Of a stretch of 35,229 nucleotides of DNA, positions 1 through 19,024 are shown piece by piece. Both the position numbers and the translations under genes were made by a program. The first letter of the stretch is position 1, and every line of letters starts with the position of its first letter. The stretch is taken from sequence record SRR2962707_5509, one strand, 5' to 3'. Under the pieces are notes generated by a model, which was not told where the DNA came from, made no database searches, and saw only the letters and a program-made list of their open reading frames with translations.

Positions 1-291
1 GCCCACATTGTCGTAAACGCTCATATGCGGGTAGAGCGCATAGGATTGGAACACCATGGCCACGCCGCGATCGCGCGGCTGCACGCCGTTGACGATTTTG
101 TCGCCGATCCTCAGCTCGCCGCCGGTGATGTCCTCCAGGCCCGCAATCATGCGAAGCAGCGTGGACTTGCCGCAGCCGGACGGACCGACAAACACCACGA
201 ACTCGCCGTGCTCGATTTGAAGGTCGACGCCTTTGATGACTTCGACCTTGCCATAGGTCTTGCGGATTTGAGTGAGGCTCAAGCCGGCCAT
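1..291 (-). CDS. Sugar ABC transporter ATP-binding protein (MalK/UgpC-like); only the 5' part is in the window
   Basis: Manual translation of the minus strand from ATG at 291 gives [53 protein letters not shown]...[19 protein letters not shown] (Walker A and Q-loop). AAGGAG RBS upstream. Absent from the ORF track because it is truncated. Confidence 0.95.
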
Positions 292-308
292 GATGATCTC
301 CTTATGCC

Positions 309-1301
309 CTAGACCTGGGCGCCGGGGGGAAGCTTGTCGAGTTCAATATGCAATAGGCCATCAGCATCGATGCGCACCGGAATGGGGTCAGAGACCTGCC
401 CGATGAACGAGCCGTCAGCCGCGTCATGGCGGAAGCCCATGAAAACGAGGCCCTTGTCGGTCTCGACGATCTTGCCGGCATAGCGGCTGCCCTGCGCGCC
501 ATCGAAGAAAGCGCCGGGCGCCACTTCCCACGGACCGAACGGATCGTCTGCCATCAGATAGTGCGTTCCGCGCACCGGCGTTTCCGGGTTGAGGCGCTTA
601 TAGGCCTCGGACCAGTGCGACCCGTCGGTACAGAACAGCATGTACCACTTGCCGTTCACCTCGAAGACCTGCGGTACTTCCATCTGCCCGAACATGCCGC
701 CGGCATAAACGGGCGGCTGCAATGTCCAGGTGTAAAGATCGGGCGAGGTGGCAAAGCCGATGGTGCCGCCGGCATTGGGCTCGGCCACACCGGGACGGCG
801 GGCAACGAAATACATGACCCAACCATCGCCCTTGGGATTGTTCATCACCCAGGGGTCGCGGAAGGCGCGGTCGTGCCAGTGACCCGGGGTATATTCCTCA
901 TAGTCCGGGCCCGAAATATCGAGCGCCAGGCCATCGCCGACACGGGTCCAATTGTGCCCGTCGGTCGAGGTCGCGTGCCCCAGGCGCTGCTTCATGCCCT
1001 CTTCGGCATGCTCGGTGCCGGTATAAAAGAGGTGCCAAAGGCCGGTTTCGTCCCGCAGCGTCGAGCCGGTCCAGGTGGTCCAGTCGTCCCAAGCCACCGG
1101 GTCGGCCGGCTTGAACGTGGTGCCCAGATGCGTCCAGTTGACCAGGTCCTTGGACACCGCATGCCCCTGGGTTACGTGGCGATGCCGCATGTCAGGATGG
1201 GCCAGCGTGTTGTCTGCCTGCAGGAAATAGGCGTGATAGTCCTCGCCGTCGCGGTAAATCCAGAAGTCCCAAATCCATTTGTCTTTAAGTGCGATAACCA
1301 A
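309..1301 (-). CDS. Clan GH-J glycoside hydrolase (GH32/GH68-like beta-fructofuranosidase), no signal peptide
   Basis: Motifs WIWDFW (nucleophile Asp), WTGS, FRDP (transition-state Asp) and MEVP (acid/base Glu). Probable TTG start at 1301; the track start at 1352 overlaps the upstream permease. Confidence 0.85.
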
Positions 1302-1326
1302 AATCGTAGCTTTCGTAAGTGGTGTC

Positions 1327-2205
1327 TCAGCCCTTGATGCCGGTGGAGGCAATCGAGGTGATGAAGGCGCGCTGGAGGAAGAGATAGAAGGCGAGCACCG
1401 GCAGGGTGATCATGGACAAATAAGCCATCACCTCGCCCCAGGCGGTGTTGAGCTGGAAGAAATATTGCAGCCCAACCATCACCGGCCGGTACTGTTCGGA
1501 CTGCGTGACCATCAGCGGCCAGAGATACTGGTTGTACATGGCCAGGAACTTGAGGATCGCGGCAGTGGCAAAGACCGGACCGGATATCGGCACGATGACC
1601 AGGCTATAGACCTGGAACCAGCTTGCTCCATCGAGCCGAGCTGCCTCGATCAGTTCCTTGGGCAGGTCGCGGAAGAATTGCACGAAGAGGAAGATGGTCA
1701 GCGCATCGGCCAGGAACGGCACGATCTGCACGTGATAGGTGTTGAGCCAGCCCCAGGTGATACCCTCGCTTCCAAGCCAGGGCAGGGCATTGACCACCAT
1801 CAGCATGGGCACGGCGATGGTTTCGAAAGGTACGATCAGTGTCGCGATAATGATCGAGAGCACCACGCTTTTGCCGCGGAATTCGAGGAACGCGAAAGCA
1901 AAAGCCGCCATCGAGCACAGGAACAGCGAGCCGATCACGGTGATGGCCGTGACCAGGATCGAGTTGAAGACAAAGAGCCCCACCGGCGCGCGCTCGAACG
2001 CGGCAAAGTAGTTGTCCAGCGACACATCACCCACTGGCAGGAAGGCATTGAACGAAGAAGTGTCGCGCAACAATTGCGCGTCCGGTTTGAACGAGCTGAC
2101 CACCATGAAGACGATGGGGAAGACGAAGACCAGAGCCACCAGGATCAGCAGCAGATATTTCAGGCTGGTCTTGAGGTTCTGGTTGGGCGAAGTGACGGCA
2201 GCCAT
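1327..2205 (-). CDS. Carbohydrate ABC transporter permease (MalG-like)
   Basis: Multiple hydrophobic helices and the EAA motif LIEAARLDGAS. Confidence 0.95.
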   Translation of the reverse strand: MAAVTSPNQNLKTSLKYLLLILVALVFVFPIVFMVVSSFKPDAQLLRDTSSFNAFLPVGDVSLDNYFAAFERAPVGLFVFNSILVTAITVIGSLFLCSMAAFAFAFLEFRGKSVVLSIIIATLIVPFETIAVPMLMVVNALPWLGSEGITWGWLNTYHVQIVPFLADALTIFLFVQFFRDLPKELIEAARLDGASWFQVYSLVIVPISGPVFATAAILKFLAMYNQYLWPLMVTQSEQYRPVMVGLQYFFQLNTAWGEVMAYLSMITLPVLAFYLFLQRAFITSIASTGIKG

Positions 2206-2207
2206 GG

Positions 2208-3290
2208 TCAGCGCTCCCTTGTGACGTATCGCTGGAAGAGAGATATGGCGAGCACGATCAGGAACAGCAGCACCGATATGGCCGAGCCACCGGCGATGTT
2301 CTGCTGCTCATAGCCGCGCGTGACTGCCTGGAACACCAGCGTCTGCGTACTGTCGAGCGGACCGCCATTGGTCATCACGTCGATCTGGGCAAAGAGCGCA
2401 AAGGCCTGCATTGTAATGACGACGAGGATCAAGACGGCCGTGTTGCGTAGCCCTGGCCAGGTAACAAAGCGGAATTTCTGCCAGGCCGTTGCCCCCTCGA
2501 TATCGGCGGCCTCATAGAGGGTGAGCGGGATGTTCTGCAGGCCCGCCAGCCAGATCACCATATGAAAGCCCACTGCCTGCCAGATCGACATGACGATGAT
2601 GGCGAACATGGCCGTGTCGGGATTGCCAAGCCAATCGATGGGCTGGAATTGCCCGAAACTGAGAAATTGCAGGAGGTTGTTCAAAAGCCCGCTGCGCCCG
2701 TCATAGATAAAGCGCCAGAGCAGCGACACGACCACGATCGAGACAACTACAGGCATGAAATAGACGGTTCGGAAGACGTTTATGCCGCGCAGCTTCTGGT
2801 TGATCATCAGGGCCAGCAAGAGCGCGATGCCCGATTGCAGCGGTGCCACCACCGCCACGAAGAACAGTGTATTGGTCAGCGCCTTCATGAAGACGAGGTC
2901 TCGGGCAAGGACCAGCACCTTGCTGTCGCCCCAGCTCCAGCCGAACCATTCGCGCATGCCCTCAAGCTGGGGATAGTCCGGATTGTTGCGGGTGAAGTTG
3001 CGCACCCGCGGATAGCTCAATTCGCCAGTCTCGCTGACAATGAGGCTGCCGTCTTCGGCCCGCTCAGGCTCCAGCACCAGCGTGCCCACGCCCAGCAATT
3101 GCTCGAAATTGCTGGTGCCCACGAACTGGGTCGGATTGGGTGAAATCAGGCGCTGATTGGTGAAGGAGAACCAGAAGGCCAAAAGAAAGGGCACGATTAG
3201 GAACAGGGTCACCAGAGCCAGGGCCGGACCGCTCATCAGCCAGCCGGCCAGCGAGTGGGACTGCAGCGATTTGGTTCTTGTCGGACGCAT
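2208..3290 (-). CDS. Carbohydrate ABC transporter permease (MalF-like) with an enlarged periplasmic loop
   Basis: EAA motif LYEAADIEGAT, MTNGGP motif and TM helices. Confidence 0.95.
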   Translation of the reverse strand: MRPTRTKSLQSHSLAGWLMSGPALALVTLFLIVPFLLAFWFSFTNQRLISPNPTQFVGTSNFEQLLGVGTLVLEPERAEDGSLIVSETGELSYPRVRNFTRNNPDYPQLEGMREWFGWSWGDSKVLVLARDLVFMKALTNTLFFVAVVAPLQSGIALLLALMINQKLRGINVFRTVYFMPVVVSIVVVSLLWRFIYDGRSGLLNNLLQFLSFGQFQPIDWLGNPDTAMFAIIVMSIWQAVGFHMVIWLAGLQNIPLTLYEAADIEGATAWQKFRFVTWPGLRNTAVLILVVITMQAFALFAQIDVMTNGGPLDSTQTLVFQAVTRGYEQQNIAGGSAISVLLFLIVLAISLFQRYVTRER

Positions 3291-3319
3291 GGTTGACCTG
3301 CCTTGGGACGCGCGGGGTG

Positions 3320-3347
3320 GGCCGGTCCGGATTTCTCCGGGCCGGCC
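3320..3347 (-). terminator. Intergenic stem-loop after the binding-protein gene (mRNA stabiliser or partial terminator)
   Basis: Minus strand GGCCGGCCCGGA-GAAA-TCCGGACCGGCC: 12-bp stem with one mismatch and a GNRA loop, no U-tract. Confidence 0.55.
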
Positions 3348-3364
3348 GTGCTCGGGAGGGGGAC

Positions 3365-4633
3365 CTATTGGGCCGTGGCGTAGTTATTGTTGCGGGCGAT
3401 GTCGTCATTGATGGCATCGGTCGCCGCATCGAGCGCATCAACCACGTCAGCGCCATTGGCGATGTCCGAAAGCGCCTTGCGGAATTCAAGTGCCTGGAAC
3501 ACATAGCCCGGGGTCACTGGACGCAGCGTCGCCTGGGCCTCGGAGAGACCATAGAAGACTTCAAGCGGCCCGCCTTCCTTGTAGTTTTCGGTCATGGCCG
3601 CAGCTTCGGCCGTGGCTGGGATGAGGCCAATACCGTCGGAGAAGGCCGCCAGATATTCGGGCTGAAGCGCGAACTCGATGAAGGCGCTCGCGCCCTCGGG
3701 ATGCTCGGAGGTCGCTGATACGCCGAACTGCCAGGAAGCGCCGCCGATCTTGGGACCAGTGCCGAAATCGGGCGCGGGCAGGAAGAGAACATCATCGCCC
3801 AGAGCATTGAGCGTATTGACCGCTACCCAATTGCCGTTCCATTGCAGGGCATAGTCGCCGTCGATGAAGCCGGTTTCATGGTCGGCCATGTCCTGGCTGG
3901 TGCCCGGAGCATATTCATTGGTGAACAAGCTCTGCCACCATTCGCCGAATTCGATGGCCGCGTCGCCATTTAGGGCGCCCTCGGCGGTCTCGTAGGACGA
4001 GCGGTCAACCATGTCGCCGCCAAAGCTCCACAGGAACGGACCAAAGGCATAGGGGTACCATTCGCCCTGATCGGCCATGCCCAGGTTCAGCGGATATTCG
4101 AACTCGCCGGATTCCTTGAGGGTCGCGAGAATGCCGTCGAACTCTTCGCGGGACCAGGGCTCATCGAGCGTCGGAATGCGGATGTCGAATTTTTCAAGCG
4201 TCGACCTGCGCGCATACATGGCAATGGCCGCGTCCCACAGGCCAACCGAATAGACTTCGCCGTTGTATTCGCCGATCGCGCCAGGCAGGAAACCGTCAAG
4301 CGCGCCCTCGGAGAGTTGCAGCGGCTGCATATATCCGGCCCAGGCCCAGTTCGGCATGACCGGTCCATCCACGTCGATGATGTCGGGCAGATTGCCGGCC
4401 ACGGCGGCGGCCACGACAGAGTCATTATAGGCCGCCTGCGGGAATTCCTGCAGCGTGACCGACCAGTCGGACTGGGAGTCATTGAAATCGGAAATGATGG
4501 TGTTGATCAGGTCGCGCTCAACGGTGCTGCCGGCGCCGTGATACCACATGGTCAGCTCGGTCTGTGCGAAAGCGGCGGTGCTCATCGCCGTGGTGATGAC
4601 AAGGCCTGCTGTCAAAAGGCGTAGGGACTTCAT
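3365..4633 (-). CDS. Carbohydrate ABC transporter substrate-binding protein (family 1)
   Basis: Signal peptide ending AFA-Q, LPDII motif, operon context. Confidence 0.93.
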   Translation of the reverse strand: MKSLRLLTAGLVITTAMSTAAFAQTELTMWYHGAGSTVERDLINTIISDFNDSQSDWSVTLQEFPQAAYNDSVVAAAVAGNLPDIIDVDGPVMPNWAWAGYMQPLQLSEGALDGFLPGAIGEYNGEVYSVGLWDAAIAMYARRSTLEKFDIRIPTLDEPWSREEFDGILATLKESGEFEYPLNLGMADQGEWYPYAFGPFLWSFGGDMVDRSSYETAEGALNGDAAIEFGEWWQSLFTNEYAPGTSQDMADHETGFIDGDYALQWNGNWVAVNTLNALGDDVLFLPAPDFGTGPKIGGASWQFGVSATSEHPEGASAFIEFALQPEYLAAFSDGIGLIPATAEAAAMTENYKEGGPLEVFYGLSEAQATLRPVTPGYVFQALEFRKALSDIANGADVVDALDAATDAINDDIARNNNYATAQ

Positions 4634-5706
4634 GTTTCTTTCCTCCTTGAATTTAGTTGCGTGACATTGGCGTCACGGGTTTGGACGCTTTCGCGCCAGG
4701 CGACCGGAGCAGAGACCAGTTCGCGGCTCGGCTCGTTGGGTTTGGTGGTGCCACTCATCAGGCGCAGCAGCTTGTCGGCAGCGCGCGCACCCATGGCGGC
4801 GTAAGGCAGCTCGGCGCTGGTCAGGCCCGGATGGAGATGTTCGGCGATCATGCGATAGTCGTCATAGCCGGCGACTGACATCTGCTGGGGTATGGCAAAT
4901 CCACGCTCGCGTAAGAGGCCATAGACACGCATGGCCATCTTGTCGTTGGCGCAACAGATGACTGTCGGTTCTGCCTTGAGTATGCGGTCCAACGCATCCC
5001 AGAGCAGATCGAATTCATGCGTGCTGCTGGGTAGGGCGCCGACCTGGACCAGCCCATCGTCAACGGCAATGCCATTGTCGCGATGGGCGCGGCGATAGCC
5101 AGCCACGCGCAGATCGCAGGCCACGTAGTGCTCGGGCAGGGTGAGATAACCAATGCGGTGATGGCCACGCCGGATCAGCCCATCCACAAGCGCATACTGG
5201 GCCCCTTCATCATCGGGCAGGACAGAGGGAGTGTCCTCGGCATCAAAGCAATTGACCAGAACGATCGGCCGATCGCGTAGAGCCGCTGGCAGGGTGACTT
5301 CGCGGTGGTACTCAGCCACATATAGAATGCCCTCAACCCTATGCTCCTGAAATGTCTGGAGTAGCGTCGGGATGCGCTCGGCCTGTCCGCCGCTATCGGC
5401 GATAAGCAGCGTGCGGTTGGATTGGTCGATGACACGCTGCGCGCCCTGCACGAGGTAGATTTCGGGAAGGCCCGCATCTTCGAAGTGATGGGTCGAACTG
5501 ATGGCGCCGGTAATCATGCCGATCAGGCCCGAGCGCTGCGAACGCATGGTGCGGGCGGCGCTGGAGGGGACGTAGTTGAGGGCCACCATGGCCTGCTGCA
5601 CAGCCTCGCGTGTCGCCTGGTTAACCGGCGCATCGCCGTTCATCACCCGGCTCACCGTCTTGGGTGAGACCCCTGCAGCTTTGGCAACATCATAAATCGT
5701 GGCCAC
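4630..5706 (-). CDS. LacI-family transcriptional regulator
   Basis: HTH ATIYDVAKAAGVSPKTVSRVMN, YVPS hinge and SVAGYDD. GTG start at 5706 with GGAGGAGG RBS. Confidence 0.95.
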   Translation of the reverse strand: MATIYDVAKAAGVSPKTVSRVMNGDAPVNQATREAVQQAMVALNYVPSSAARTMRSQRSGLIGMITGAISSTHHFEDAGLPEIYLVQGAQRVIDQSNRTLLIADSGGQAERIPTLLQTFQEHRVEGILYVAEYHREVTLPAALRDRPIVLVNCFDAEDTPSVLPDDEGAQYALVDGLIRRGHHRIGYLTLPEHYVACDLRVAGYRRAHRDNGIAVDDGLVQVGALPSSTHEFDLLWDALDRILKAEPTVICCANDKMAMRVYGLLRERGFAIPQQMSVAGYDDYRMIAEHLHPGLTSAELPYAAMGARAADKLLRLMSGTTKPNEPSRELVSAPVAWRESVQTRDANVTQLNSRRKET

Positions 5707-5794
5707 GTCATTCCTCCTCCGGTTGAACTGATGCCCCACTCTAGACGCTCTGGTCGGTTGGGAAACGGTTCACCGTGATGCCGCAGGTGTTCTA

Positions 5795-5822
5795 TGACAC
5801 CGATGTCATGACATCGGTGTCA
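5795..5822. promoter_or_regulatory. Tandem LacI-type operator (perfect 28-bp palindrome)
   Basis: TGACACCGATGTCA-TGACATCGGTGTCA: two abutting 14-bp CG-centred quasi-palindromes, about 90 bp upstream of the lacI-family gene. Confidence 0.8.
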
Positions 5823-5851
5823 CAAATGCAGGATGACGAGACAAGAGTCAA
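5823..5851 (-). promoter_or_regulatory. Possible sigma70 promoter of the sugar operon
   Basis: Minus strand TTGACT-N17-CATTTG immediately upstream of the operator; the -10 box is weak. Confidence 0.4.
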
Positions 5852-6140
5852 GTCGATTGCGGCAAGCGGCCGTTCAATGGGGTATTTGGTGGGGCCTAAA
5901 AAGGGAAAGCCGCAACTCCCCAATCTGCGTGATCATCCTGGACTGGCCCGATGCGTGAACGCTCGCTGGGCCAGGACCGAAGGCGATATGAAGCCGAGCA
6001 GATATATGGTGACCGCGCACTGGTGCGTTGCTGGTCCAGTCCCGTGGCGACATGCGCTACCAAGCATCTAGGCACTTTGATTGCTTTACAGTGCGCAGGC
6101 CGGAATGGTTTAATTCCAGGTAGTTGAGGGAGCAGCGCAG

Positions 6141-6506
6141 ATGAGATCTTGCTTGGCGATAGTGCTGTCGTTGTTCCTTGTGCCGGCGGCGGGCGCGGTG
6201 TGCGACTTTTGCAATCCGAGCATTCGTCTCAATGAACGCGTTGCTGCCTGCTTTGCCGAACAATATGAAGCCGAGCTTGTGCGGCTCGAAGCAGAGGGAC
6301 GCGGCTTCGTCCTTGTTGATCTCACCCAATGCGTGGAAGACAGATCCCGGGGGCTTCCCAGCGCCAATGCACAGCGCGATATCGCGGCGATTGACACAAG
6401 CTTTGTGGCCGATGAGGCCGCATTGCGCTGCATCAATGCCGAGATCGGCCGGCTGGCCGGCTCGCTTGATCCGGTGGTCCGGTTGGACCTGACAGCATGT
6501 CCCTAG
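6141..6506 (+). CDS. Small exported Cys-rich hypothetical protein
   Basis: GAGGGAG RBS, signal peptide MRSCLAIVLSLFLVPAAGA, six Cys in the mature part (CDFC...C...C...C...CP). Its stop overlaps the next start. Confidence 0.75.
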   Translation: MRSCLAIVLSLFLVPAAGAVCDFCNPSIRLNERVAACFAEQYEAELVRLEAEGRGFVLVDLTQCVEDRSRGLPSANAQRDIAAIDTSFVADEAALRCINAEIGRLAGSLDPVVRLDLTACP

Positions 6507-7129
6507 ATCCGCTCGATGAGGCCGTCGCGGACCAAGGCGAACCACAAGGCAATAGGGGCGGTGGCAGAAGGACTGGTTGGCTGGCCGGTGCCGACGGCGT
6601 CCTCTCGCCGGTTCTCAAGATCTTTGCCGTCATCGCCGTTCTCGCTGGTGCCATGGAATATTTTCAGCGCGTGCAGGATGACCGGATCGAACGATCATTG
6701 GCGGAGGTCGAAAACTGGGATGAGGGGGGCTATCGTGCGGCCTATGGGGAACTCAACGCCATTATCTGGCCGTTCTACCAGCAACAGGCCGATTTCATCG
6801 TTGGTCTGGCACCCGACCAGCAGGCGCTGATCTATGCCAATATCGGAGAGCGGGTCACCGGTCAGGATGACCAGTTCGATGCGCGCAGCGACCGGCTTGT
6901 CGACGATCTCTTCTATTTTTTCGATCGCGCGGCACTTTGTGCGCAGCAGCGGATTTGTGATTTTGACGTCCTCAATGCCTTTCTGGGTACCGAAGTCGTC
7001 GATTTCTGGCGGTACTTTTCCGAATATGCCGAACGCCGCCGTGACGCGGGTTACGGCAATTATGGTCTCTGGACCGAGCGCTTCGCCAGGGCCGAGATCG
7101 CGAGGGCGTCTTGGCCGCTCGGTTTCTGA
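6497..7129 (+). CDS. Single-pass membrane hypothetical protein (possibly DUF4760-like)
   Basis: TM segment VLKIFAVIAVLAGAMEYF, then a helical domain with FYFFDRAALCAQQRICD. Overlaps both neighbouring genes. Confidence 0.7.
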   Translation: MSLDPLDEAVADQGEPQGNRGGGRRTGWLAGADGVLSPVLKIFAVIAVLAGAMEYFQRVQDDRIERSLAEVENWDEGGYRAAYGELNAIIWPFYQQQADFIVGLAPDQQALIYANIGERVTGQDDQFDARSDRLVDDLFYFFDRAALCAQQRICDFDVLNAFLGTEVVDFWRYFSEYAERRRDAGYGNYGLWTERFARAEIARASWPLGF

Positions 7130-10100
7130 AACAGGCCGTCCTCGCCATAGCCGTCCTGGGCGCGGTTGCAGCCCACGGGGTAGCGCGGGCTCAGGAGCTT
7201 GGCCTTGCCGAGCGTCTGCTCGTGCAGGAAAGGCTTATCGACCTGGGGCACCTTGAGGGTTCGGCCGACGGCGTGTTCGGGCCAATGACCCGGGCGGCTA
7301 TCGGGGCCTATCAAGTGGGGCAGGGACAGTCCGAAACCGGCGCGCTGACCAGCGATGACCTCGGGACCCTGCTTGACCCATTGCCCCTTGAGGGGTTCGA
7401 GTTGCTCGACAACATAGACCTCTCTGGCGCCGATTACCGTAGCGGCATGTCCGACCCGAACCTCAAGAATATCGGGCTTGGCGCCTGTCAGGCCAGTTGC
7501 GCGTCAGAATCGCGGTGCTCTGCCTTTACCTACAATGTCGGCGCCAGGGTCTGCTTTCTCAAGATGAACGCGCCCGGCCGCTCGGCATTCACGGGCGCGG
7601 TGTCCGGCATCCGGCTGGCATCGGGCCTGGCCGCCGGAGGGGAGGGTGCGGCGATCTCATCCTTCGATCGGCTCGAAAATGTCGATCTGCCTTACAACGA
7701 TCTTCGCTCCGGCATGGTGGAGCCGTCCCTCAAAGGCATCGATCTGGCAGCATGCGAAGCACAATGCGCCGATGATGGGCTCTGCCAAGCCTATACCTAT
7801 AACAGCCAGGCAAGGGTCTGCTTTCTCAAATCCGCCGCAGCCGAACCCGTTCGATTCTCGGGCGCCTATTCGGGCATCAAGCGCGATGGTTCGGCATCGA
7901 ACGTGGCCGACCAATGGGTGCGCGATCCGTCGCGGCTTCTCGATTGGGCACGCGAGACAATCACGCGTTACGAACCAAAGACGCCCCCGCTGCGCTTTGA
8001 TGCCCTCGATGCCGAGGTTTCGGGCAATGTCACTCCCGGCTTTGCCAGGGACGATGTCTATGATCTGAGCGACATGGCGAGGGAAGTGACCATTCTGCCC
8101 CAGGCCGAGGGCAACTGGTCCATCACCATGCGCGTGGGGGAGGAAATCGATCGCCTCGAGACCAGTCGATTGGTGTTGGGCGGCCAGTATCAGGACTGGC
8201 TTTCCGCCCTCGATGCATGGCGTCTTTCATATTCCGATGAGAGCCGGGCCCATGTTGCGGCCTTAGTGCCGCGTCTAGAGGCCATAATTGCCGAGCTTGA
8301 TGCCCGTTACGGTCAGGACAATCCGCTCTCGGGCTATGTCAAGCTGGACCTGGTGACTGGGCTGGGCCAGCGTTACGACGCGCGCTGGGATAAAGGCGAG
8401 CGAGACGCACATCTGGAACGGACTGATCGGCTGAAGCGCGAGGCCTTCAGCGCGATGGCGCGTTCCTATGCTGGCGCGCCCGATCTTGCCCATATCCTGC
8501 AATTGCGGGCCGTTGCCGCCGTGACGTCCGGCCTGCCGAATGGTGATTTTTGCGAGGACAGCGACGCGAGCAAGGCCTATCAGGCCGGCGCTGAACTGCT
8601 CGCAATGGCCGGCGTCGGTGACCTCTGGGTTGGCCACGCCCTGGCTGATGCTGCGGGCTGCGCCCGGAGCGCCGAGCGGGTGGCCCTGCTTGAGCGTGCC
8701 GCAAGACTGACTTCGCAAAACGAGACTCAATACGCCCGCGCGCTGCTGCAGCTCGGGGTGGCCCGGGCCGAGACGGGCGACCGGGACGGTGCACGAGCGG
8801 CCATCCTCAATGCCATGGCGATCGAGAAGGGAGAGGCCTATGCGCACTCCTATGGCTGGATGCGCAACTGGTTCGGAGATTTCGGAACTGTCCAGAGCCT
8901 TGGGCTTGCAGACGAGATTGACCTTATGCTCGCTCACCGGTTCGTTGAGGCCTTGAGCGATGGGCCGCAGTCGAACACGGCCGAGATGTCGAGCTATTTC
9001 GGCACCGCGCGACAGCTTGAGCGACTTGAGCGCTTCGAGGTGGCTGACATGTTCTATGCGGCCATTGCCGGGGCATGGGATGGTGACCCGACGACGCCAG
9101 CAACGCTCGTCGCCGCTCAGGCCATCAACGACCGCGACTATGGAGAGGCCGAAGCGATCGCTGCGCGCCTGCTTTCACTCACCCCGCCTGGTTCGAATGC
9201 GGCGCTTCGGGTGGATTTTCTATCCATGCTGGCCCAGGCGACCCAGTTGGCCGGAGACTTCGAGCGGTCCGCCGATTTTGCCCAGCAGGCTCTGGTCGAG
9301 ATCGGCTCGGCAAATCTTGGGCAGGATCCTGGATTTGCAGAAGCGGTTCGGACCCTTGAGGGTCAGATCATGGAAGCGCTGCAAGCCAGCGGAGGCGGCA
9401 GGCTTGCCGACACGGCAATCGATGCGTTCGACAGCCGTCTCGCGCAGGCTTGTGCGGCCGGCTATCCGGTGCCTGATCTGCCCGGCGTCTTCGTGACCGA
9501 GGAGCTTGAGCGCAGTCTGTTCTTTCCTGACCTTGCCAGCCGCTATGCCGATTGCGCCCACGACCAGTTCGGCCGGCGCTTCCTGGTGGAAGACCAGTTC
9601 GGCTCGGTCGATACCAAAGGCATTGAGCACTATTTTCGCACCCTGGTTGGCCTGGGTCGAACGGGGGAGGCATGGACGGACTTTGAGCGCATCCTGGCCA
9701 TCGATCCGGTGCGCCGCGAGCGTGAAGATAACGATGGCTGGGCGATCGGGCGCAATCTTGAGCGTCTCAATAGCGCGACCCGTGCTGCCATTCTCGAAGG
9801 CGACACCGCCTTTGCCCGGCGATTGTCAGAGGCCGTGATCGAATATCTTGAAGGGGAGCTGGATGATCTGCTGGCGCTGGATATGGCGCAAGATGCGGTC
9901 GCGACTTCGATCCTGATGCTCAAGACATTGGGGCAGGATGAGCATTTTGTTCGGCTTGCTTCCGTGTTCGATGCCAACCGGGAAGCGCAGCAGATGGGCT
10001 ACTCCTGCTATGGCGTGGCCTGCGACCTCGCCATCGAAGTGAGGCAGTCCCTTGGTGATCTGGACGGCGTGGAGGACTATTCCGGGCGCCTCAACAACGG

Positions 10101-11934
10101 GCTTATCCTCTATATGTCGGGCGCCAGTGCGGACTCCAAGGAAATGGAAGTCATCATGGCAGAAGCCGAGCAATTGGGCATCAAGGCCATGGCCATGGGC
10201 CTGCCAGCGACGGCTTTCGCCTATTTCTCGACCGCCGGAGCCGATGTGGAGACGATCCTGGGGGACCCTTTGCCTCTCTCCTCGATCAAGAAGGTCAGAC
10301 TTGCGGGTGCCTTTGCCAAGGGGCTGGCCGCCACCGGACGACGCAAATCGGCATTCGAGGTGGCCCGCCACCTGCTCGATGCTGCGCGGGAGCGTGTCTC
10401 GGGGTCAGATGCATTTGCGGCCGATAGCCTTCTGAGTTGGTCCAGTGAACTCGACGAGGTTCTCGAAGTGTTTCTGGCCGTGGCGCCGGCCGCGCAAGGC
10501 GAGGCGTTCAGGCCAGCCGTTGCTGAGGACATTCTGTTCGCCGTGCAGTTCCTTCAGGCGTCCGGCACCTCGGCAACCCTGAGCGAATTGGCAGCTCGAG
10601 GCATGTCTCCATCCCTTGATGCACCTTATCGCCGGTACCTCGATGTTGTCAGGCAGATCGACGCACTTGTGGCCGAACTGGGTGAGGGCGGCTTGGCTGC
10701 AGAATTGACGCCAGAGCTGGACCGCCTGAGATCGGAACGCCAAAGCCTGTCCGAAGTTATCGCTGAAGCGGACCCGGACTACTTCCGGCTTGGAAGGCTG
10801 CAATTTGCCGACACGGAGGCTCTCTCCTCCGCATTGCACGAAGGCGAAGCGATCTTCACGGCCTATGCTCTGGACAATGGGTTGGTGCGGGTCTGGGTCG
10901 ATGGCGATGGGCTCCGTGCGGATCGAACAATGATCGGCGCAGACAGGCTCGGCGCCATGGTCACGGCTTTCCGCCAAAGCATCATCGGGGACGGCACGAG
11001 CAGCGTGCGGGTCGATCTTGCCTATGAGCTGCAGGCGACCCTGCTTGGTGACATCCTGGACGACAAGGATCATGTTCGTCACCTGACATTCGTCCCCAAT
11101 GGTGTGCTGGACGGTCTTCCGTTGGCCGCGTTAATGACCGGGCAATCCGAGAAAGATCGCCTCTCCGGTCAGGAGTTGATGGACCCGGAGCTCCCCTGGC
11201 TTGTGCGGCGCCTGGACCTGGCGGTCCTGCCTTCCGTATCGGGCCTTGTTTCATTGCGGACCGGAATTGCGCCCTCCAATGCGCCAAGGGCTTATCTGGG
11301 CATTGGCAATCCCAGCTATGGCTACACCGATCCCGTGCATGGCCCCCTTGTGTCCCTGCCCGAGACCGAGGCTGAAGTGCGGTTCATCGGCGCCTTGCTG
11401 GGGGCCGATAGCAAAAGGGATCTGCTGGTGGGCGAGGCTGCAACCGAGCAGAATCTGAAAGCCCTGCCGCTTGACCAATACCGTATCCTGACCTTCGCCA
11501 CGCATGGCTTTATCGCTGAAGGGTTGACTGGTGCCACCGAACCCGGACTGGCCCTTTCGGGATCCACGCTCGAAGAGACGCTGCTGACGCGTTCCGATGT
11601 CATGGAGCTTGAGCTCGATGCTGACCTTGTCATTCTCTCGGCCTGCAGTACCGCCAGCTCGGATGGGACACCGGGCGCGGAGGGCTTGTCGGGTCTGGCC
11701 TCGGCTTTCTTTTATGCCGGAACGCGCGGCTTGCTGGTGACCCACTGGGACATTCCGAGCGGCCCGGCGCTGGAACTAACGACCGGCATGATCGAGGCGC
11801 GTGGTGTTGATGGGGCTGTCAGTTGGCCCGAAGCGCTCCAGACCTCGATCGTTGGGATGCTGGATAATCCGCGCTCGCCATTGCATGCCCATCCCGTTTC
11901 ATGGGCCGGACATTTTCTGGTCAGCGCTCAATAG
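7111..11934 (+). CDS. Exported CHAT-domain (caspase-like, clan CD) protease with a peptidoglycan-binding domain, two PAN/Apple domains and a TPR-like helical region
   Basis: Signal peptide ending ARA-Q. PG_binding_1 motif VQERLIDLG...ADGVFGPMTRAAIGAYQ. Two PAN repeats (C..C..C..TYN...CFLK). CHAT motifs FVPNGVLDGLPLAAL, GNP, LPETEAEV, FATHG (His1465), LVILSACST (Cys1512), GLASAFFYAG, THW and HPVSWAG. Confidence 0.92.
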   Translation: MAARFLKQAVLAIAVLGAVAAHGVARAQELGLAERLLVQERLIDLGHLEGSADGVFGPMTRAAIGAYQVGQGQSETGALTSDDLGTLLDPLPLEGFELLDNIDLSGADYRSGMSDPNLKNIGLGACQASCASESRCSAFTYNVGARVCFLKMNAPGRSAFTGAVSGIRLASGLAAGGEGAAISSFDRLENVDLPYNDLRSGMVEPSLKGIDLAACEAQCADDGLCQAYTYNSQARVCFLKSAAAEPVRFSGAYSGIKRDGSASNVADQWVRDPSRLLDWARETITRYEPKTPPLRFDALDAEVSGNVTPGFARDDVYDLSDMAREVTILPQAEGNWSITMRVGEEIDRLETSRLVLGGQYQDWLSALDAWRLSYSDESRAHVAALVPRLEAIIAELDARYGQDNPLSGYVKLDLVTGLGQRYDARWDKGERDAHLERTDRLKREAFSAMARSYAGAPDLAHILQLRAVAAVTSGLPNGDFCEDSDASKAYQAGAELLAMAGVGDLWVGHALADAAGCARSAERVALLERAARLTSQNETQYARALLQLGVARAETGDRDGARAAILNAMAIEKGEAYAHSYGWMRNWFGDFGTVQSLGLADEIDLMLAHRFVEALSDGPQSNTAEMSSYFGTARQLERLERFEVADMFYAAIAGAWDGDPTTPATLVAAQAINDRDYGEAEAIAARLLSLTPPGSNAALRVDFLSMLAQATQLAGDFERSADFAQQALVEIGSANLGQDPGFAEAVRTLEGQIMEALQASGGGRLADTAIDAFDSRLAQACAAGYPVPDLPGVFVTEELERSLFFPDLASRYADCAHDQFGRRFLVEDQFGSVDTKGIEHYFRTLVGLGRTGEAWTDFERILAIDPVRREREDNDGWAIGRNLERLNSATRAAILEGDTAFARRLSEAVIEYLEGELDDLLALDMAQDAVATSILMLKTLGQDEHFVRLASVFDANREAQQMGYSCYGVACDLAIEVRQSLGDLDGVEDYSGRLNNGLILYMSGASADSKEMEVIMAEAEQLGIKAMAMGLPATAFAYFSTAGADVETILGDPLPLSSIKKVRLAGAFAKGLAATGRRKSAFEVARHLLDAARERVSGSDAFAADSLLSWSSELDEVLEVFLAVAPAAQGEAFRPAVAEDILFAVQFLQASGTSATLSELAARGMSPSLDAPYRRYLDVVRQIDALVAELGEGGLAAELTPELDRLRSERQSLSEVIAEADPDYFRLGRLQFADTEALSSALHEGEAIFTAYALDNGLVRVWVDGDGLRADRTMIGADRLGAMVTAFRQSIIGDGTSSVRVDLAYELQATLLGDILDDKDHVRHLTFVPNGVLDGLPLAALMTGQSEKDRLSGQELMDPELPWLVRRLDLAVLPSVSGLVSLRTGIAPSNAPRAYLGIGNPSYGYTDPVHGPLVSLPETEAEVRFIGALLGADSKRDLLVGEAATEQNLKALPLDQYRILTFATHGFIAEGLTGATEPGLALSGSTLEETLLTRSDVMELELDADLVILSACSTASSDGTPGAEGLSGLASAFFYAGTRGLLVTHWDIPSGPALELTTGMIEARGVDGAVSWPEALQTSIVGMLDNPRSPLHAHPVSWAGHFLVSAQ
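7396..7881 (+). repeat. Intragenic tandem duplication encoding two PAN/Apple domains (about 7396-7614 and 7663-7881)
   Basis: Shared peptide pattern N.DL...D.RSGM..P.LK.I.L.AC...C.....C.A.TYN..ARVCFLK.......F.GA.SGI; DNA AGGGTCTGCTTTCTCAA is present in both copies. Confidence 0.9.
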
Positions 11935-12568
11935 ATCTGGCGCCAGGAGCGTGATCGAAGGGCCCCATCGGTTCAAAGGAGCGCGGCAGCCGCGACGCTG
12001 GTCGCGGAGATTGCGACCAAGAGGCTTCTGCGCAAAGCATAGGCGCAGCCTATCCCCACAAACAGGACGTGCAGCGCAAACGGTAACAGGGTCCCGGTGA
12101 TAATCAGGTCAGAGTCTTCGGAATGCGAAGGGGCTCGATCGTGGCGATCTGCAACCCGTTTTCTCCTGTTAACCATGCGATCGAACAGAACTGGAACACA
12201 AAGGGAACTTTGTTCATGGTCCTCGTGTCCGGATCGATGATCGATTCGGTGTCTGGCCGGGCCGCATGTCTGAGGACAAAGCGGCCGCCGATCCGCGCCA
12301 ACGGAACGACGGCCTGACCCTATCCAACCTGATTGACCAGGTGTGAACATGGCTAAGGCCAATATGATTGGGGCATTGCCCCCATGCAAATGCTGCCCGT
12401 CCCCGGGCACTGCTTATCCCCATCCGATCGAACCTGACATCGCGCCCATGGTGCCGATTTGCTGCGGGCCCTAGGCCGCGCCAGCACTCCTTCGTCAGTT
12501 TTGTCATTGTCCTCTCGGCCGTGACGTCGAGATCTCGCAGCCCATGCGGCTGCTCGGGAGAAATTTGC

Positions 12569-13459
12569 ATGTCTTTTCTATCAATGAGCCCGACCTATAA
12601 GTCGGTGAGCTTTTTCGGCGACGATATCAGTCCCCTGGTGCCCGTCATTCTCCATATTGCGGGCCATCGCCGCGCCGAACTGGCCCGCGTTCGGGTCACC
12701 GGTCCGGCAGTCTATGTCGCGCTTTATGCCAATCAGAGCCGTGCCTATGTCGGCGTCAGTGCGGATTATCCCACCCGCGCCGGCGAGGGCCGGCATCTCG
12801 ATACCTATGGTGAGGTCCAGAACCTCTTCATCATCACTGAAGCCCAGGATCGCTGGACGCTGGACGAAGCCCGCGCCAGCGAGCGGATCGTCTGGGAAAC
12901 GCTCCGTGAGGTCTGCGGTCTTGAGACCGTTGGTGAAATCCCGCGCGGGTCACCGGTGGCGCATCGCTATGCGCAGCTGCGCGGCTTTTGCGGGCGCGCC
13001 CTGCAGTTGATCGCCGGCTCGGGCCATGTGGCATTCGATGCGCCTGATCATGCGCTCCTCGCCGGCGCGCTGGGCAATGGGGATATTGTTGAAAAAGACA
13101 GTGTCGGGCTGCCCGATGGAACGCTCCACGCCTTTGTGGGCAAGAATATCGAAGCCCATGCCATCGAGACCGAAGAGGGGGACTGGATCGTCCTGCCCGG
13201 TAGTGAAGTCTGGGCAACTCCCGTCGCCTCGGCTGGCCAGCTGGTTCGGGTTCGCCTTGAGAGCCTGATGTTCGCTGGCTGCCTTGAGCCCCACTACCGT
13301 GATCCGCAATTGCTGGTGGCCCGCATGCCCTTGCGCTTCCCCTCGCCGAGCGGCGCCGCCCAGTTTGTCGCGGGCTCGAAGGGCTATGGGCCTGCCGGCT
13401 GGCACAAAGTCTGCCGTGTCCGCGAAGGTACGCCCGGACCCTTGCCGCGCCGACCCTAG
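12569..13459 (+). CDS. GIY-YIG nuclease-like domain fused to a C-terminal DUF4357 (RAMA-like) domain
   Basis: ATG at 12569 with GGGAG RBS. N-terminal PAVYV...AYVGVS....R....H and the conserved Glu in ARASER. C-terminal WIVLPGS...FPSPSGAAQFVAG...GPAGW is typical of DUF4357. Confidence 0.75.
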   Translation: MSFLSMSPTYKSVSFFGDDISPLVPVILHIAGHRRAELARVRVTGPAVYVALYANQSRAYVGVSADYPTRAGEGRHLDTYGEVQNLFIITEAQDRWTLDEARASERIVWETLREVCGLETVGEIPRGSPVAHRYAQLRGFCGRALQLIAGSGHVAFDAPDHALLAGALGNGDIVEKDSVGLPDGTLHAFVGKNIEAHAIETEEGDWIVLPGSEVWATPVASAGQLVRVRLESLMFAGCLEPHYRDPQLLVARMPLRFPSPSGAAQFVAGSKGYGPAGWHKVCRVREGTPGPLPRRP

Positions 13460-13543
13460 CGCCCAGCCCACCCCCGCCTGGCCCGATTATTCCCGTTTTC
13501 TCAAGCGCCGCAGCGCTCTTCGCGCCGCGCCATAAGGAAATCT

Positions 13544-15418
13544 ATGTCTTTCATTCCCACGCCACCTGAGACTGAGGCGCACTCCGGTCCTGATCCGGAG
13601 ACCCGCATCAAAGCGATCGCAGACCGCTTTTGCAGCGCCATGCTCGACGCCGCCGCGCCGCCTGCCGTCCTCAACGCCCTCGCCGAAAACCGTCCCCAGG
13701 TGATCATTGTCCAGGCGCCAACGGCGGACTGGGTCGACTATCTCGACCAATATTTGCGCGAGGCCTACCCCCTGGCCCTGGTGCTGTCTCGCGATGAGGC
13801 GGTTCGCCGGGACGCCGGGAACTGGTCCAGCCAGACGCTGATGCCGTCGCTACATGGCCGTGCGGTGATCGCCGTCTCCCAGGATCCCCAGTCCCTGATC
13901 CCGCTGCTGCTGCTCGATCTGGCCGACCATCACATCGTGCTTTCTCGCCCCGACCTGCCCATGGTGCAGGCAGTCATCATCGATCTGACGGCGGCCTGTC
14001 CCCGTAAGCTGCGGGCCCATCACCTCGAAGGGATGAGCGCCGGACAATTGCTTGGCGCCTTGCGCCCCGCCAAAAGCGCCGGAGCTATGGCACGCCGCAT
14101 TATTGCAACAACGACACGGGCCCAGACCGCCCACAAGGCTCCCGACGTGCCCAAGCTTTCGGAGCTTGAACTGCCAGACGATGTCGCATCCTGGGCCCAT
14201 CGCATGGCCGCCGATCTGCCTGCGGGTAAAACGAGCGGACTTGAACATGTGCTCATTGCCGGACCGCCTGGTGTCGGCAAGACCCATCTGGTCTATTCCC
14301 TGGCAGCGACTGCCGGTCTGCCGCTGGTCATGACCAATGCCGGAAAATGGTTCACCGAGAAAGGCGGCCATCTCCACGAGGTGCTGGGGGCGCAAACCCA
14401 GTTCTTTGCCGAGCTTACCCGTCTGGCGCCGGCCATTGGCGTGATCGATGAGGTCGATTCGGTTCCCAACCGGACCGTTCTGCGGGGCCATTACGACCCC
14501 TGGTGGATCGGGGTTACCAATGGGCTGCTCACCAATATTGATGGGTTCAATGCCTTAGGCCTTCCCGTCCTGCTGATCGGCATTACCAACACGCCCAACC
14601 GGCTCGACCCGGCACTGGTCCGTCCTGGACGATTGGGCCGCCATCTCGAGATGATCTTGCCCACCTCGCCCGAACAGCGGCTCGCTATGCTGCGCCTGCA
14701 TCTGCCCGAGCCGGTCAAATCGGCAGCGCTCGAGACACTGTTGCCGTTTCTCAATCATCAAAGCCAGGCCGGTCTCAAACAGGTCGCGGTAATGGCATCC
14801 GCTCTGGCCGCAGAAGCGGACAGGGCGATGACCCTCGAAGATCTCCGCAAAGTCCTCTCGCCGTCTGACCACCGCACCCCCGAGGTCCGCCGGGCCGTCG
14901 CCCTGCATGAGGCCGGGCATGCGGTTATGGCCATCACCTACGGCCGCACTGTGCGTTTGGTTGCGATCCATGCCGGGGACGGCCGGGAAGGGCAGACCGA
15001 TATCGAGGCGAGCGGTACCGTCATCCTGACCCCTGAGCGCCTCGAGGAGAATATCCGCATCCGCCTTGCGGGCCGTGCCGCCGACATCGTCAGCGGCACC
15101 GGTCCCAATGCCGGGGCCCGGGCCGATCTCGCCCAGACAGCGGAGATGCTTGAGGACGCCTTTGTGGACCTGCGCTTTTACGGCCCGCCCTCACAATGGC
15201 CGGCTGATGGCGTCGATCCCAATAATCGCAGCGCCATTATCGAGGAGCGGATCGCGACCCTTTTGGCCCAGACCATTGCCTGTCTGACCCCGCTGCGCCC
15301 CGTGCTGGAGGCGGTCGCCGATGCCTTGGTTGAGCACAACGCCCTCTCCGGGACCGATCTGGCCGCCGTTCTGGCGCCCTTTGATCTGCCCAATCCCGAT
15401 ACCCCCAAAACCCCATAG
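13544..15418 (+). CDS. Soluble FtsH-like AAA+ ATPase / peptidase M41 zinc metalloprotease
   Basis: Walker A GPPGVGKT, Walker B GVIDEVD, SRH TNTPNRLDPALVRPGRL, HEAGH zinc motif, LAGRAA, GARADL (third ligand Asp). No TM helices. TAAGGA RBS. Confidence 0.9.
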   Translation: MSFIPTPPETEAHSGPDPETRIKAIADRFCSAMLDAAAPPAVLNALAENRPQVIIVQAPTADWVDYLDQYLREAYPLALVLSRDEAVRRDAGNWSSQTLMPSLHGRAVIAVSQDPQSLIPLLLLDLADHHIVLSRPDLPMVQAVIIDLTAACPRKLRAHHLEGMSAGQLLGALRPAKSAGAMARRIIATTTRAQTAHKAPDVPKLSELELPDDVASWAHRMAADLPAGKTSGLEHVLIAGPPGVGKTHLVYSLAATAGLPLVMTNAGKWFTEKGGHLHEVLGAQTQFFAELTRLAPAIGVIDEVDSVPNRTVLRGHYDPWWIGVTNGLLTNIDGFNALGLPVLLIGITNTPNRLDPALVRPGRLGRHLEMILPTSPEQRLAMLRLHLPEPVKSAALETLLPFLNHQSQAGLKQVAVMASALAAEADRAMTLEDLRKVLSPSDHRTPEVRRAVALHEAGHAVMAITYGRTVRLVAIHAGDGREGQTDIEASGTVILTPERLEENIRIRLAGRAADIVSGTGPNAGARADLAQTAEMLEDAFVDLRFYGPPSQWPADGVDPNNRSAIIEERIATLLAQTIACLTPLRPVLEAVADALVEHNALSGTDLAAVLAPFDLPNPDTPKTP

Positions 15419-15438
15419 TCCCAGAAGGACCCGCAACC

Positions 15439-15846
15439 ATGATCCTGCCCTCTTTTCATATCGGCGTGAGTGACCCGCGCGGCACCATTGGCCTGATCGA
15501 TCTCGATCGCGTTTTTGATCTCGATGATGATCGCATAAGCGATCGGATGCGTCTCAGGATTGCGGCTGCCCGCAAGGCCATGCTGCGCCTGCGCGGCGGC
15601 TGGCGTCCTGGCCAGAAAACGCTCGAACATGCTCCGCGCCTGCATGACTGGACCTTCTATGAATTCGCGCCTTATCGCGTGGTCCTGCACGGCACCGTGG
15701 TCGGGCACCCGCGTTTGGGTAACCGTCCCATGATCCAGACCAGTTTTCTGATTGGGATCGATGCCACGCATCTGAAATGGGCCAGGACCCTGAGCCGCTT
15801 CTATGTGCTTGGAGAGCCTGAAAAGCAGCATGGCGGGTGGGAGTGA
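15439..15846 (+). CDS. DUF6634-like small protein
   Basis: Motif APRLHDW...LHGTVVGHPRLG...IQTS......WARTLSRFYVLG; AAGGA RBS. Family name is from recall. Confidence 0.7.
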   Translation: MILPSFHIGVSDPRGTIGLIDLDRVFDLDDDRISDRMRLRIAAARKAMLRLRGGWRPGQKTLEHAPRLHDWTFYEFAPYRVVLHGTVVGHPRLGNRPMIQTSFLIGIDATHLKWARTLSRFYVLGEPEKQHGGWE

Positions 15847-16099
15847 AATCCCGTCATGCAGGCGCCTGGTATTCGCGACCTTTGGCACCGGTATGGTTCA
15901 TTGCCCTCCGGTGCCTGTTCCCAAAGGGTCACAATGCCCGGGAGTTTGTACATTCTTCATTGCCCGCCTTTAGATTGGTGGGTAGTTTGTCGGCCACGGG
16001 CGTATCGGCTTGGGACGGCGTTGCGAATTCATTTAGTTGGCGTAGTGCGGTCATGGCAGCCCGAAGCTCAAAAGCATCGAACCTCAGGGGTGCTCATTG

Positions 16100-18400: not shown

Positions 18401-18412
18401 GGAAGGGGAGCC

Positions 18413-18907: not shown

Positions 18908-19024
18908 ACCGACGGAGGCATTGCGGTCGCCCAAACCTTCGCACAACGGCCCCTGTGCCGTGGGATGTGCGATAATGCCCACTACCCTCCATGCCCGAGG
19001 CAATTCACGGGATGGGACTAGAGA

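Follow-up and report, generated by a model that had tools for sequence, protein, structure and literature searches.

The window analysed here, a 35,229-nucleotide stretch of sequence record SRR2962707_5509, carries at positions 6141–11934 three overlapping genes, g1, g2 and g3, which encode a small exported protein with six cysteines in its mature part, a membrane protein, and a 1607-residue protein that ends in a CHAT protease domain. A first-pass annotation, made from the letters of this DNA, had described the same three genes, and both the open reading frames (ORFs) and the Pfam matches agree with it. Homologues were kept for each gene, at 34–97% identity for g3, in 8 clusters for g2 and in 13 clusters for g1, and because of this conservation the three are real genes and not chance ORFs. 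The frames overlap by 10 nucleotides (nt) between g1 and g2 and by 19 nt between g2 and g3, with Shine-Dalgarno sequences of the GAGG type ahead of g1 and of g3. The overlapping frames read as translational coupling, through which g2 would be made in a fixed ratio. A scan of positions 5700–12700 for promoters and terminators found 0 promoter-like sites and 8 terminator-like sites, none of them convincing, versus 5.6 expected from shuffled sequences; no RNA dataset was present among the public sequencing runs listed for the region 6000–12000. The genes and the parts of g3 are as follows:

6141–6506, plus strand: g1, ORF of 121 amino acids (aa)
6497–7129, plus strand: g2, ORF of 210 aa
7111–11934, plus strand: g3, ORF of 1607 aa with a TTG start
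7111–7191, plus strand: signal peptide of g3, residues 1–27, ending ARA/QE, called by eye from its n, h and c regions; the same N-terminus is found in orthologues P0004–P0009
7210–7353, plus strand: PG_binding_1 domain of g3, residues 34–81 (Pfam, E 1.2e-8)
7414–7830, plus strand: two PAN/apple domains of g3, residues ~102–156 and ~184–240, with four conserved Cys each (Pfam and profile match)
7918–11010, plus strand: helical region of g3, like tetratricopeptide repeats (TPR), residues ~270–1300, with three conserved Cys pairs and sub-threshold TPR matches
11029–11919, plus strand: CHAT domain of g3, residues 1307–1603 (Pfam); codons of His1465 at 11503–11505 and of Cys1512 at 11644–11646

The C-terminal part of g3 matched the CHAT family (PF12770, of the caspase-fold clan) with a score of 144.4 bits (cut-off 24; E 6.5e-42) over model positions 7–286 of 289. 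The catalytic dyad is intact: g3 has the motifs around both His (Phe-Ala-Thr-His-Gly) and Cys (Leu-Ser-Ala-Cys), and Cys1512 is kept in 13 of 13 aligned relatives and His1465 in the 12 that cover that column, as the thirteenth is truncated. Searched by sequence and by profile against the PDB, the CHAT region matched no solved CHAT structure, and an NCBIfam scan of g1, g2 and g3 gave nothing meaningful.

The front of g3 showed a PG_binding_1 domain that resembles by profile the peptidoglycan-binding domain of the lytic transglycosylase SltB3 (5anz, E 6e-8), followed by the two PAN domains, with the PAN_4 and PAN_1 models of Pfam matching two stretches each (E ~3.5e-13). By profile, these PAN domains are similar to the apple domains of Toxoplasma MIC4 (4a5v, E 4.4e-10), which we take to be galactose-binding lectins. 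In the long helical region that comes next, TPR matches were sub-threshold only (TPR_2 at 16.7 bits against 27), as were those to TPR_12 or TPR_7 in orthologues. Eight of the 15 cysteines of g3 lie in the PAN domains, six form pairs in the helical region (481/517, 781/815 and 966/971), and one is catalytic; all 14 non-catalytic ones fall within conserved sets in the alignment of relatives. Such a pattern is that of disulfide-bonded exported proteins, and it is the strongest of the features that point to the periplasm as the location of g3, the others being its signal-like N-terminus, the PG_binding_1 domain and the PAN domains. Of the extracytoplasmic, wall-tethered signalling or defence module put forward in the first-pass annotation, it is the location that gains support from these features, together with the signal-like start and conserved cysteines of g1, whereas the function is graded lower below.

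The second PAN domain (7660–7830) shares 69% of its residues with that of P0027, which has 1452 aa and combines PAN and PG_binding domains with an unassigned remainder. In addition, it is 37–47% identical to PAN domains in ~1850-aa frames of many genomes of the same genus, Devosia; P0036, one of these ~1850-aa PAN-bearing proteins, has the source name alpha-2-macroglobulin family protein. Judged from these similarities, the PAN module is common to large exported Devosia proteins.

The small protein g1 starts with a hydrophobic signal of residues ~1–19, ending AGA/VC (by eye), and its mature part opens with CxxC. One of its 7 cysteines is in the signal and six are in the mature part, and all six are invariant in 14 family members. 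The AlphaFold2 (AF2) model, with a mean predicted local distance difference test (pLDDT) of 75.9, showed two beta-alpha-beta units and, between them, a disordered loop (residues 65–86) whose pLDDT falls below 50 across residues 68–81. An invariant Arg70-Gly-Leu-Pro is found at the start of this loop, and behind it the family varies more than anywhere else. Between its two halves g1 shows weak similarity, with z from 0.8 to 6.1 across members, and an internal duplication is suggestive only, because 19 of 2000 shuffles reached the observed score. No match to g1 was found in Pfam, NCBIfam, PHROGs or PADLOC, and the Atlas search gave unnamed clusters only. Fold searches with the model gave a best E of 0.62 in Foldseek against the PDB and a best Z of 4.1 in VIA-align wide, with no row at Z of at least 5; a comparison with known small protease-inhibitor folds gave no useful structural match, for a model whose mean pLDDT is only 75.9 and whose loop is disordered.

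In g2, one hydrophobic, transmembrane (TM) helix was located at residues ~36–55, with Arg residues on its N-terminal side and a variable N-terminal tail of ~35 aa that is predicted to be disordered. The C-terminal helical-bundle domain is highly conserved, with invariant Cys148 and Cys154, and an invariant Arg180–182 triplet precedes a loop. An N-in/C-out topology is favoured by the Arg residues ahead of the TM helix and by the location of the invariant Cys148/Cys154 behind it, so that the tail would be cytoplasmic and the C-terminal domain periplasmic. The score of g2 against DUF4760 (PF15956) was 22.5 bits (E 1.3e-4), below the cut-off of 25, and that of its orthologue in Devosia indica was 26.8 bits, above it; in addition, the g2 cluster P0041 has a precomputed PF15956 assignment, and the nearest clusters in the Atlas are DUF4760 (score 0.96). 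A profile search with g2 collected 279 representatives at E<=1e-3, only 6 of them at E<=1e-30. From these matches, g2 is probably a divergent branch of DUF4760. Its AF2 model (mean pLDDT 75.8) consists of a long TM helix and then a helical bundle, for which fold searches were uninformative (best E 0.29 in Foldseek against the PDB; best Z 6.0 in VIA-align wide, largely from the single long helix), and a PHROGs scan of g2 found no match. Around 24 DUF4760 loci of the same order, 19 of the 74 ORFs scanned were DUF4760 itself and no other family was present in more than 2 of them; in view of this lack of a recurrent neighbour, the DUF4760 family gives no hint to the function of g2.

Conservation and distribution of the trio

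Full-length g3 was detected in only 1 of 25 genomes of the same genus, that of D. indica (G010, 77% identity). A collection of 5.8 billion protein clusters yielded nine g3-type clusters, next to the 8 of g2 and the 13 of g1; six of the nine (P0004–P0009) had every domain and covered at least 98% of the query, two (P0010 and P0011) were truncated, and P0012 was shorter (1255 aa). Members of the g1, g2 and g3 clusters are tied to each other by longest contigs of identical size (28409, 242138, 12445, 9200, 5257, 1972 and 18583). Pattern scans of one genome per species, covering 185,579 species, confirmed a g3 relative of at least 50% identity in 4 records only, namely D. indica, a Proteobacteria metagenome-assembled genome (L014) and two contig-end fragments (L015 and L022).

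The order of the genes is retained wherever it could be followed. Gene g2 immediately precedes g3 in 6 of 6 distinct loci (the window, D. indica as L001 = L013 = L055, L052, L053, L054 and L014), and g1 upstream of g2 in the four loci (4/4) with enough upstream sequence. As L052 is close to D. indica, the six loci correspond to about five lineages. At locus L053, g3 is only 34% identical, yet g1 and g2 are 50% and 53% identical there, with 4-nt overlaps; the overlapping stop/start arrangement is retained in L001 and L053, and the PG_binding-PAN-PAN architecture in L053, L054 and L014. In contrast, no g1 or g2 match was detected at any of 35 loci with more distant CHAT genes (L016–L021 and L023–L051). 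Because of these counts, the trio is regarded as a conserved unit, with g1 and g2 specific, as far as the loci compared indicate, to the architecture of g3; the partner genes of the earlier proposal do stand beside g3 in its orthologues.

The g3 orthologue at L054 contains one in-frame stop (3586–3588) between the helical region and the CHAT domain, with the same frame on both sides, and may represent a pseudogene, a split gene or a sequencing error. For the relatives with PG_binding, helical and CHAT parts that have no PAN domain (P0013–P0015), a search with P0014 found no locus, and the alignment found only a Calothrix CHAT. Public runs with at least half of the sampled words of 6000–12000 came from 3 studies and comprised metagenomes of algae, protists and phycospheres together with two coded organisms, which suggests an alga-associated lifestyle of the carrier.

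This scarcity bears on whether the trio could belong to envelope housekeeping, with g3 as a peptidoglycan-associated protease that matures or releases wall-linked proteins and g1 and g2 as its assembly factors. The PG_binding_1 domain of g3 and its probable periplasmic location would fit such a task, and the other PG_binding_1 proteins among the PDB matches are wall enzymes. However, presence in a single genome of the genus and in 4 records over all the species scanned, at a site that is an indel island (see below), makes a housekeeping role very unlikely.

Predicted g1–CHAT complex

A complex of mature g1 with residues 1070–1607 of g3, modelled by ESMFold2, reached a score of 0.65 (0.65, 0.64 and 0.66 in the individual runs) against 0.00 for the best of 3 controls; in the calibration, 51 of 78 solved complexes reached the pass mark, as did 2 of 108 mismatched pairs. 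The runs share at least 88% of their contacts, which number 109–125, with a partner pLDDT of at least 79. The confident interface on g3 comprises residues 1415–1435, corresponding to helix alpha1, which opens with a conserved Leu-Pro-Glu-Thr-Glu motif; residues 1549–1558, corresponding to the loop and helix that come behind the fifth strand and its trailing His-Trp-Asp motif; and residues 1588–1589. From the topology of the caspase fold, these elements presumably border the substrate groove. On the side of g1, the interface is formed by residues 21–25, 29, 54–63, 67–69 and 83–89, largely its invariant columns, and residues 67–69 immediately precede Arg70. In addition, the signature of the g3 interface helix is kept only in the clade that carries g1 and is variable in other CHAT proteins. 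The model supports the binding of g1 to the CHAT domain of g3, and the interaction of the protease with a co-encoded partner that had been predicted gains support, at this level, for g1.

A possible but rather doubtful reading, which takes the first-pass annotation strictly, is that g1, g2 or both are substrates without any inhibitory role, so that a ligand bound by the PAN domains would activate CHAT, which would cut the partner and thereby create a signal, for example a freed g1 fragment, or the removal of the periplasmic domain of g2 followed by intramembrane proteolysis. The disordered loop of g1, in which the invariant Arg-Gly-Leu-Pro is flanked by variable residues, and the invariant Arg triplet before a loop in g2 would both offer sites for cleavage. 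Arg70 as the P1 residue has a precedent, because separase (PMC11506125) and HetF (PMC9457339) are described as cleaving after Arg; self-cleavage followed by RseP action is the sequence proposed for DdvA, a protein compared below (PMC11506125). However, the predicted interface of g1 is large and rigid, and involves more than a loop, the cytoplasmic tail of g2 is only ~35 aa long, variable and predicted to be disordered, and the island ORFs scanned (g1–g3 and five others) included neither a sigma factor nor any other gene for a cytoplasmic output.

Accessory island and its other genes

The nearest genome, G001, matches window positions 1–5855 at 97% and 15927–18951 at 92%, with 113 unrelated bases between them; since G001 has only these bases there, the sequence at 5856–15926 is an accessory island. 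It is bordered by a LacI-family regulator with a sugar ATP-binding cassette (ABC) transporter and GH32 cluster (minus strand) on one side and by lptD on the other. No direct repeats of at least 9 nt were found at its ends, the 113-bp filler of G001 is unrelated to them, and no integrase family was detected among the island ORFs scanned. The island contains six genes, g1, g2, g3 and three more:

5856–15926, strand not applicable: accessory island of 10,071 bp that holds the trio, absent from the nearest genome G001
12368–13459, plus strand: ORF363, 363 aa, conserved from residue ~61–70, PADLOC candidate PDC-S14 (E 3.9e-9)
13544–15418, plus strand: FtsH-like AAA-M41 protein, cytoplasmic, with an intact HEAGH zinc motif at residue 455 (family scan)
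15439–15846, plus strand: DUF6634 protein (family scan)

The last three make up a second module of the island (12368–15849, plus strand). The same six genes were found in D. indica at the same left junction, and all six are syntenic in the window, D. indica and L052, where the DNA of the island has diverged further (77% and 65% identity) than that of the flank (94%). From this it could be argued that the whole island is one system, in which the trio senses or acts in the envelope, and ORF363, the FtsH-like protease and the DUF6634 protein execute the response in the cytoplasm. This seems quite unlikely to us, as the synteny comes from three closely related loci, a gap of ~600 bp lies between g3 and the point where ORF363 becomes conserved, and the pair of ORF363 and the FtsH-like gene is present in 5 of 5 other loci of the order, where no match to g1, g2 or g3 was found within ~1.5 kb on each side. 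Because it recurs without the trio, the pair is treated as a separate neighbouring module, which says little on the function of the trio.

The rare, accessory distribution would also be in line with a toxin-immunity system, in which g3 would be a released antibacterial or anti-eukaryote protease with its PAN domains as receptor or glycan binders, and g1 in the periplasm and g2 in the membrane would protect the producer. The predicted position of g1 on the C-terminal catalytic domain is that of immunity proteins, the PAN domains resemble the MIC4 apple domains of Toxoplasma, and the DNA is found mainly in the metagenomes of algae, protists and phycospheres from the 3 studies mentioned above. 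Such a toxin is nevertheless unlikely, as no secretion, lysis or release gene was detected among the island ORFs scanned, no polymorphic-toxin features were seen, an order with the immunity genes first would be unusual, and the PG_binding_1 domain together with a regulatory helical region of 800–1000 aa fits a resident periplasmic enzyme better.

Two further observations concern the DNA outside the island. Upstream of the gene for the LacI-family regulator, a perfect palindrome of 28 bp (5795–5822) looks like an operator; in both G001 and G010 it also matches itself on the other strand. At the beginning of the window (1–300), the first ~270 bases match dozens of places per related genome at 70–85% identity, and probably belong to a minus-strand gene for an ABC-transporter ATPase, of which they would be the conserved 5' end.

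Proposed mechanism and relation to known CHAT systems

We read the trio as a rare accessory operon for a wall-tethered, regulated periplasmic protease (g3), which g1 would join as a securin-like partner or as substrate and g2 as a partner in the membrane; its use would probably be in conflict or defence. We give this reading a probability of about one half. Accordingly phrased as a mechanism, g3 would be exported by Sec and held at the sacculus through its PG_binding_1 domain, with the two lectin-like PAN domains and the ~1000-aa helical region placed ahead of the intact CHAT domain. Locked by its disulfides in the periplasm, g1 would dock the face of its beta-sheet on CHAT helix alpha1 and on the loop after His-Trp-Asp, and its flexible loop with Arg70-Gly-Leu-Pro would adjoin that surface. 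In a securin-like manner, g1 might act either as a pseudosubstrate inhibitor or chaperone that silences g3 or as a dedicated first substrate, cut after Arg70 in line with the precedent above, whereas g2 would serve as an inner-membrane anchor, as a downstream target, or as both. A cue, such as a glycan or a foreign protein within the envelope, acting at the PAN domains or at the helical part, would release or consume g1 and so turn proteolysis on. Because of the accessory-island setting, a role in conflict or defence appears as the most likely purpose.

Several points weigh against this reading. The export signals of g1 and g3 were called by eye, with no predictor program. The complex was modelled with alignments unused, its score is a model confidence, and the same calibration let 7 of 44 pairs of neighbouring genes, picked blind, pass the mark as well. 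In addition, neither the catalytic His nor the catalytic Cys nor Arg70 itself is in the list of confident g1–CHAT contacts, and for this reason the docking of the g1 loop into the active site lies outside what the model supports. Concerning defence, PADLOC-DB v2.0.0 gave 0 families for g1, g2 and g3 at E<=0.01, a scan of viral contigs with the g2 alignment confirmed no relative, and a plasmid search with g3 returned 128 records, none of them covering at least 80% of the query; the five loci in which the neighbouring pair occurs without the trio count in the same direction. As a consequence of the negative PADLOC, viral and plasmid searches, the defence reading comes down to the context of the island in two closely related Devosia lineages, a guilt by association only, through the PDC-S14-like and FtsH-like neighbours.

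A more specific version, rather unlikely in our estimate, would make the trio a self-contained periplasmic immune sensor-effector, in which g1 is the securin-like, disulfide-rich clamp on the wall-anchored g3, the PAN and helical domains sense a glycan or protein of an invader as it crosses the envelope (from a predator or an alga, for example, or the tail or ejection protein of a phage), and the freed g3 cuts g2 or host envelope proteins, halting the infection before DNA entry. If true, this would be a caspase-type immunity wholly outside the cytoplasm, working without a sigma factor or a nucleotide signal.

The earlier statement that the characterised TPR-CHAT proteases are cytoplasmic is out of date. 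DdvA of Myxococcus xanthus is described as a transmembrane anti-sigma factor with a periplasmic TPR-CHAT of the separase/craspase type, whose structure was solved; its authors call it the only reported anti-sigma factor with a periplasmic TPR-CHAT, and propose a signal-induced autoproteolysis, followed by cleavage by RseP, that switches on a CBASS-CRISPR island (PMC11506125). The likeness to g3 would comprise a periplasmic CHAT domain with a His-Cys dyad behind a TPR region (in g3, a TPR-like one), a proposed extracytoplasmic cue, possibly derived from phage, a proposed action by regulated proteolysis and a link to defence genes. However, DdvA is described as a single polypeptide with a cytoplasmic zinc anti-sigma domain, a TM helix and the TPR-CHAT, which dimerises and pairs with DdvS, a sigma factor of the extracytoplasmic function (ECF) type, and its CHAT domain is described there as being without a three-helix motif. 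In contrast, g3 is a free exported protein, in which the signal is directly followed by PG_binding_1 and then by two PAN domains; the membrane protein, g2, is separate, with no anti-sigma domain and with its short variable tail of ~35 aa; and the small partner g1 is extra. Since it has no anti-sigma domain, and no sigma-factor family was detected among g1–g3 and the five other island ORFs scanned, the module falls outside the DdvA type.

With separase and securin, the trio shares a large helical region joined to a CHAT-type protease of the caspase fold and a small partner on the catalytic domain, which securin binds as a pseudosubstrate and g1 is predicted to bind. That pair is eukaryotic and cytoplasmic or nuclear, and securin is disordered and has no disulfides, whereas g1 is folded, has six cysteines and is exported; no homology between g1 and securin was detected. 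By analogy, the module may work like separase and securin or like DdvA. Craspase (type III-E, formed by Cas7-11 and Csx29, with Csx30 as the substrate) contains a TPR-CHAT protease that is allosterically activated and cuts a co-encoded partner, in which the trio may resemble it, but it is cytoplasmic, RNA-guided and Cas-associated. No Cas family was found among the island ORFs scanned, the part of the window that this search covered, and no PADLOC match was found for g1–g3; because of the lack of Cas genes in the ORFs scanned, the module is placed outside Craspase. Finally, HetF of Anabaena is, according to its report, a membrane-anchored CHAT protease with periplasmic TPRs that cleaves PatU3 after Arg117 (PMC9457339), and it resembles the case proposed here in being bacterial and in having a single specific substrate that it cleaves after Arg. 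In HetF, as described there, the CHAT domain and the substrate are cytoplasmic, whereas in g3 the CHAT domain itself would be exported.

Export does not by itself set g3 apart, as most of its sequence relatives also begin with export-like signals; most of P0013–P0036 and most CHAT ORFs at the distant loci start in a signal-like or lipoprotein-like manner. The closest CHAT relatives, from Alphaproteobacteria, are 30–40% identical over residues ~1100–1604 and have an exported partner gene directly upstream. However, these uncharacterised exported CHAT clusters differ in being without PG_binding_1, PAN, g1 or g2 homologues; in them, CHAT is partnered by other proteases and by an unrelated ~240-aa exported protein. 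In the Xanthobacter and Rhodobacterales relatives, a caspase-domain protein and the ~240-aa exported protein are located beside CHAT, and Sphingomonadales showed pairs of M48 peptidase and CHAT.

Clusters of several proteases with an exported CHAT were seen across L023–L050 and at L090. The latter, on the Pseudosulfitobacter plasmid CP069022.1, presents an annotated operon with a caspase family gene, a serine protease, a hypothetical protein, an exported protein of ~235 aa (also annotated as hypothetical) and then CHAT. The plasmid search included 46 Pseudosulfitobacter records, several among those listed coming from diatom cultures.

The view that the trio is not a described system is supported, as PADLOC gave no match and the literature search returned no paper joining 'CHAT domain' with 'PAN domain'; the terms 'TPR-CHAT' and 'periplasm' together returned the DdvA paper only. 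What is new is the combination, that is, a free exported CHAT protein with PG_binding_1 and a double PAN, a dedicated, disulfide-rich partner (g1) that belongs to no known family and is predicted to bind the catalytic domain, and a dedicated DUF4760-like membrane protein (g2).

CHAT proteases act as switches in very different settings, with separase in mitosis, Craspase in CRISPR immunity and HetF in cyanobacterial development. Among periplasmic CHAT proteins, DdvA is the only example studied so far, and the trio provides a simpler, genetically compact case, with a free protein of TPR-CHAT type that is probably periplasmic, an intact dyad, a small partner modelled on the catalytic domain and a DUF4760-like membrane protein. 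It opens the way to study how a caspase-fold protease could be restrained and fired in the oxidising periplasm, and it likewise bears on the role of PAN/apple domains in bacteria and of DUF4760 proteins. In addition, as the nearest Alphaproteobacterial CHAT relatives are mostly exported and lie beside exported partners or proteases, the finding points to an unexplored set of periplasmic proteolytic modules.

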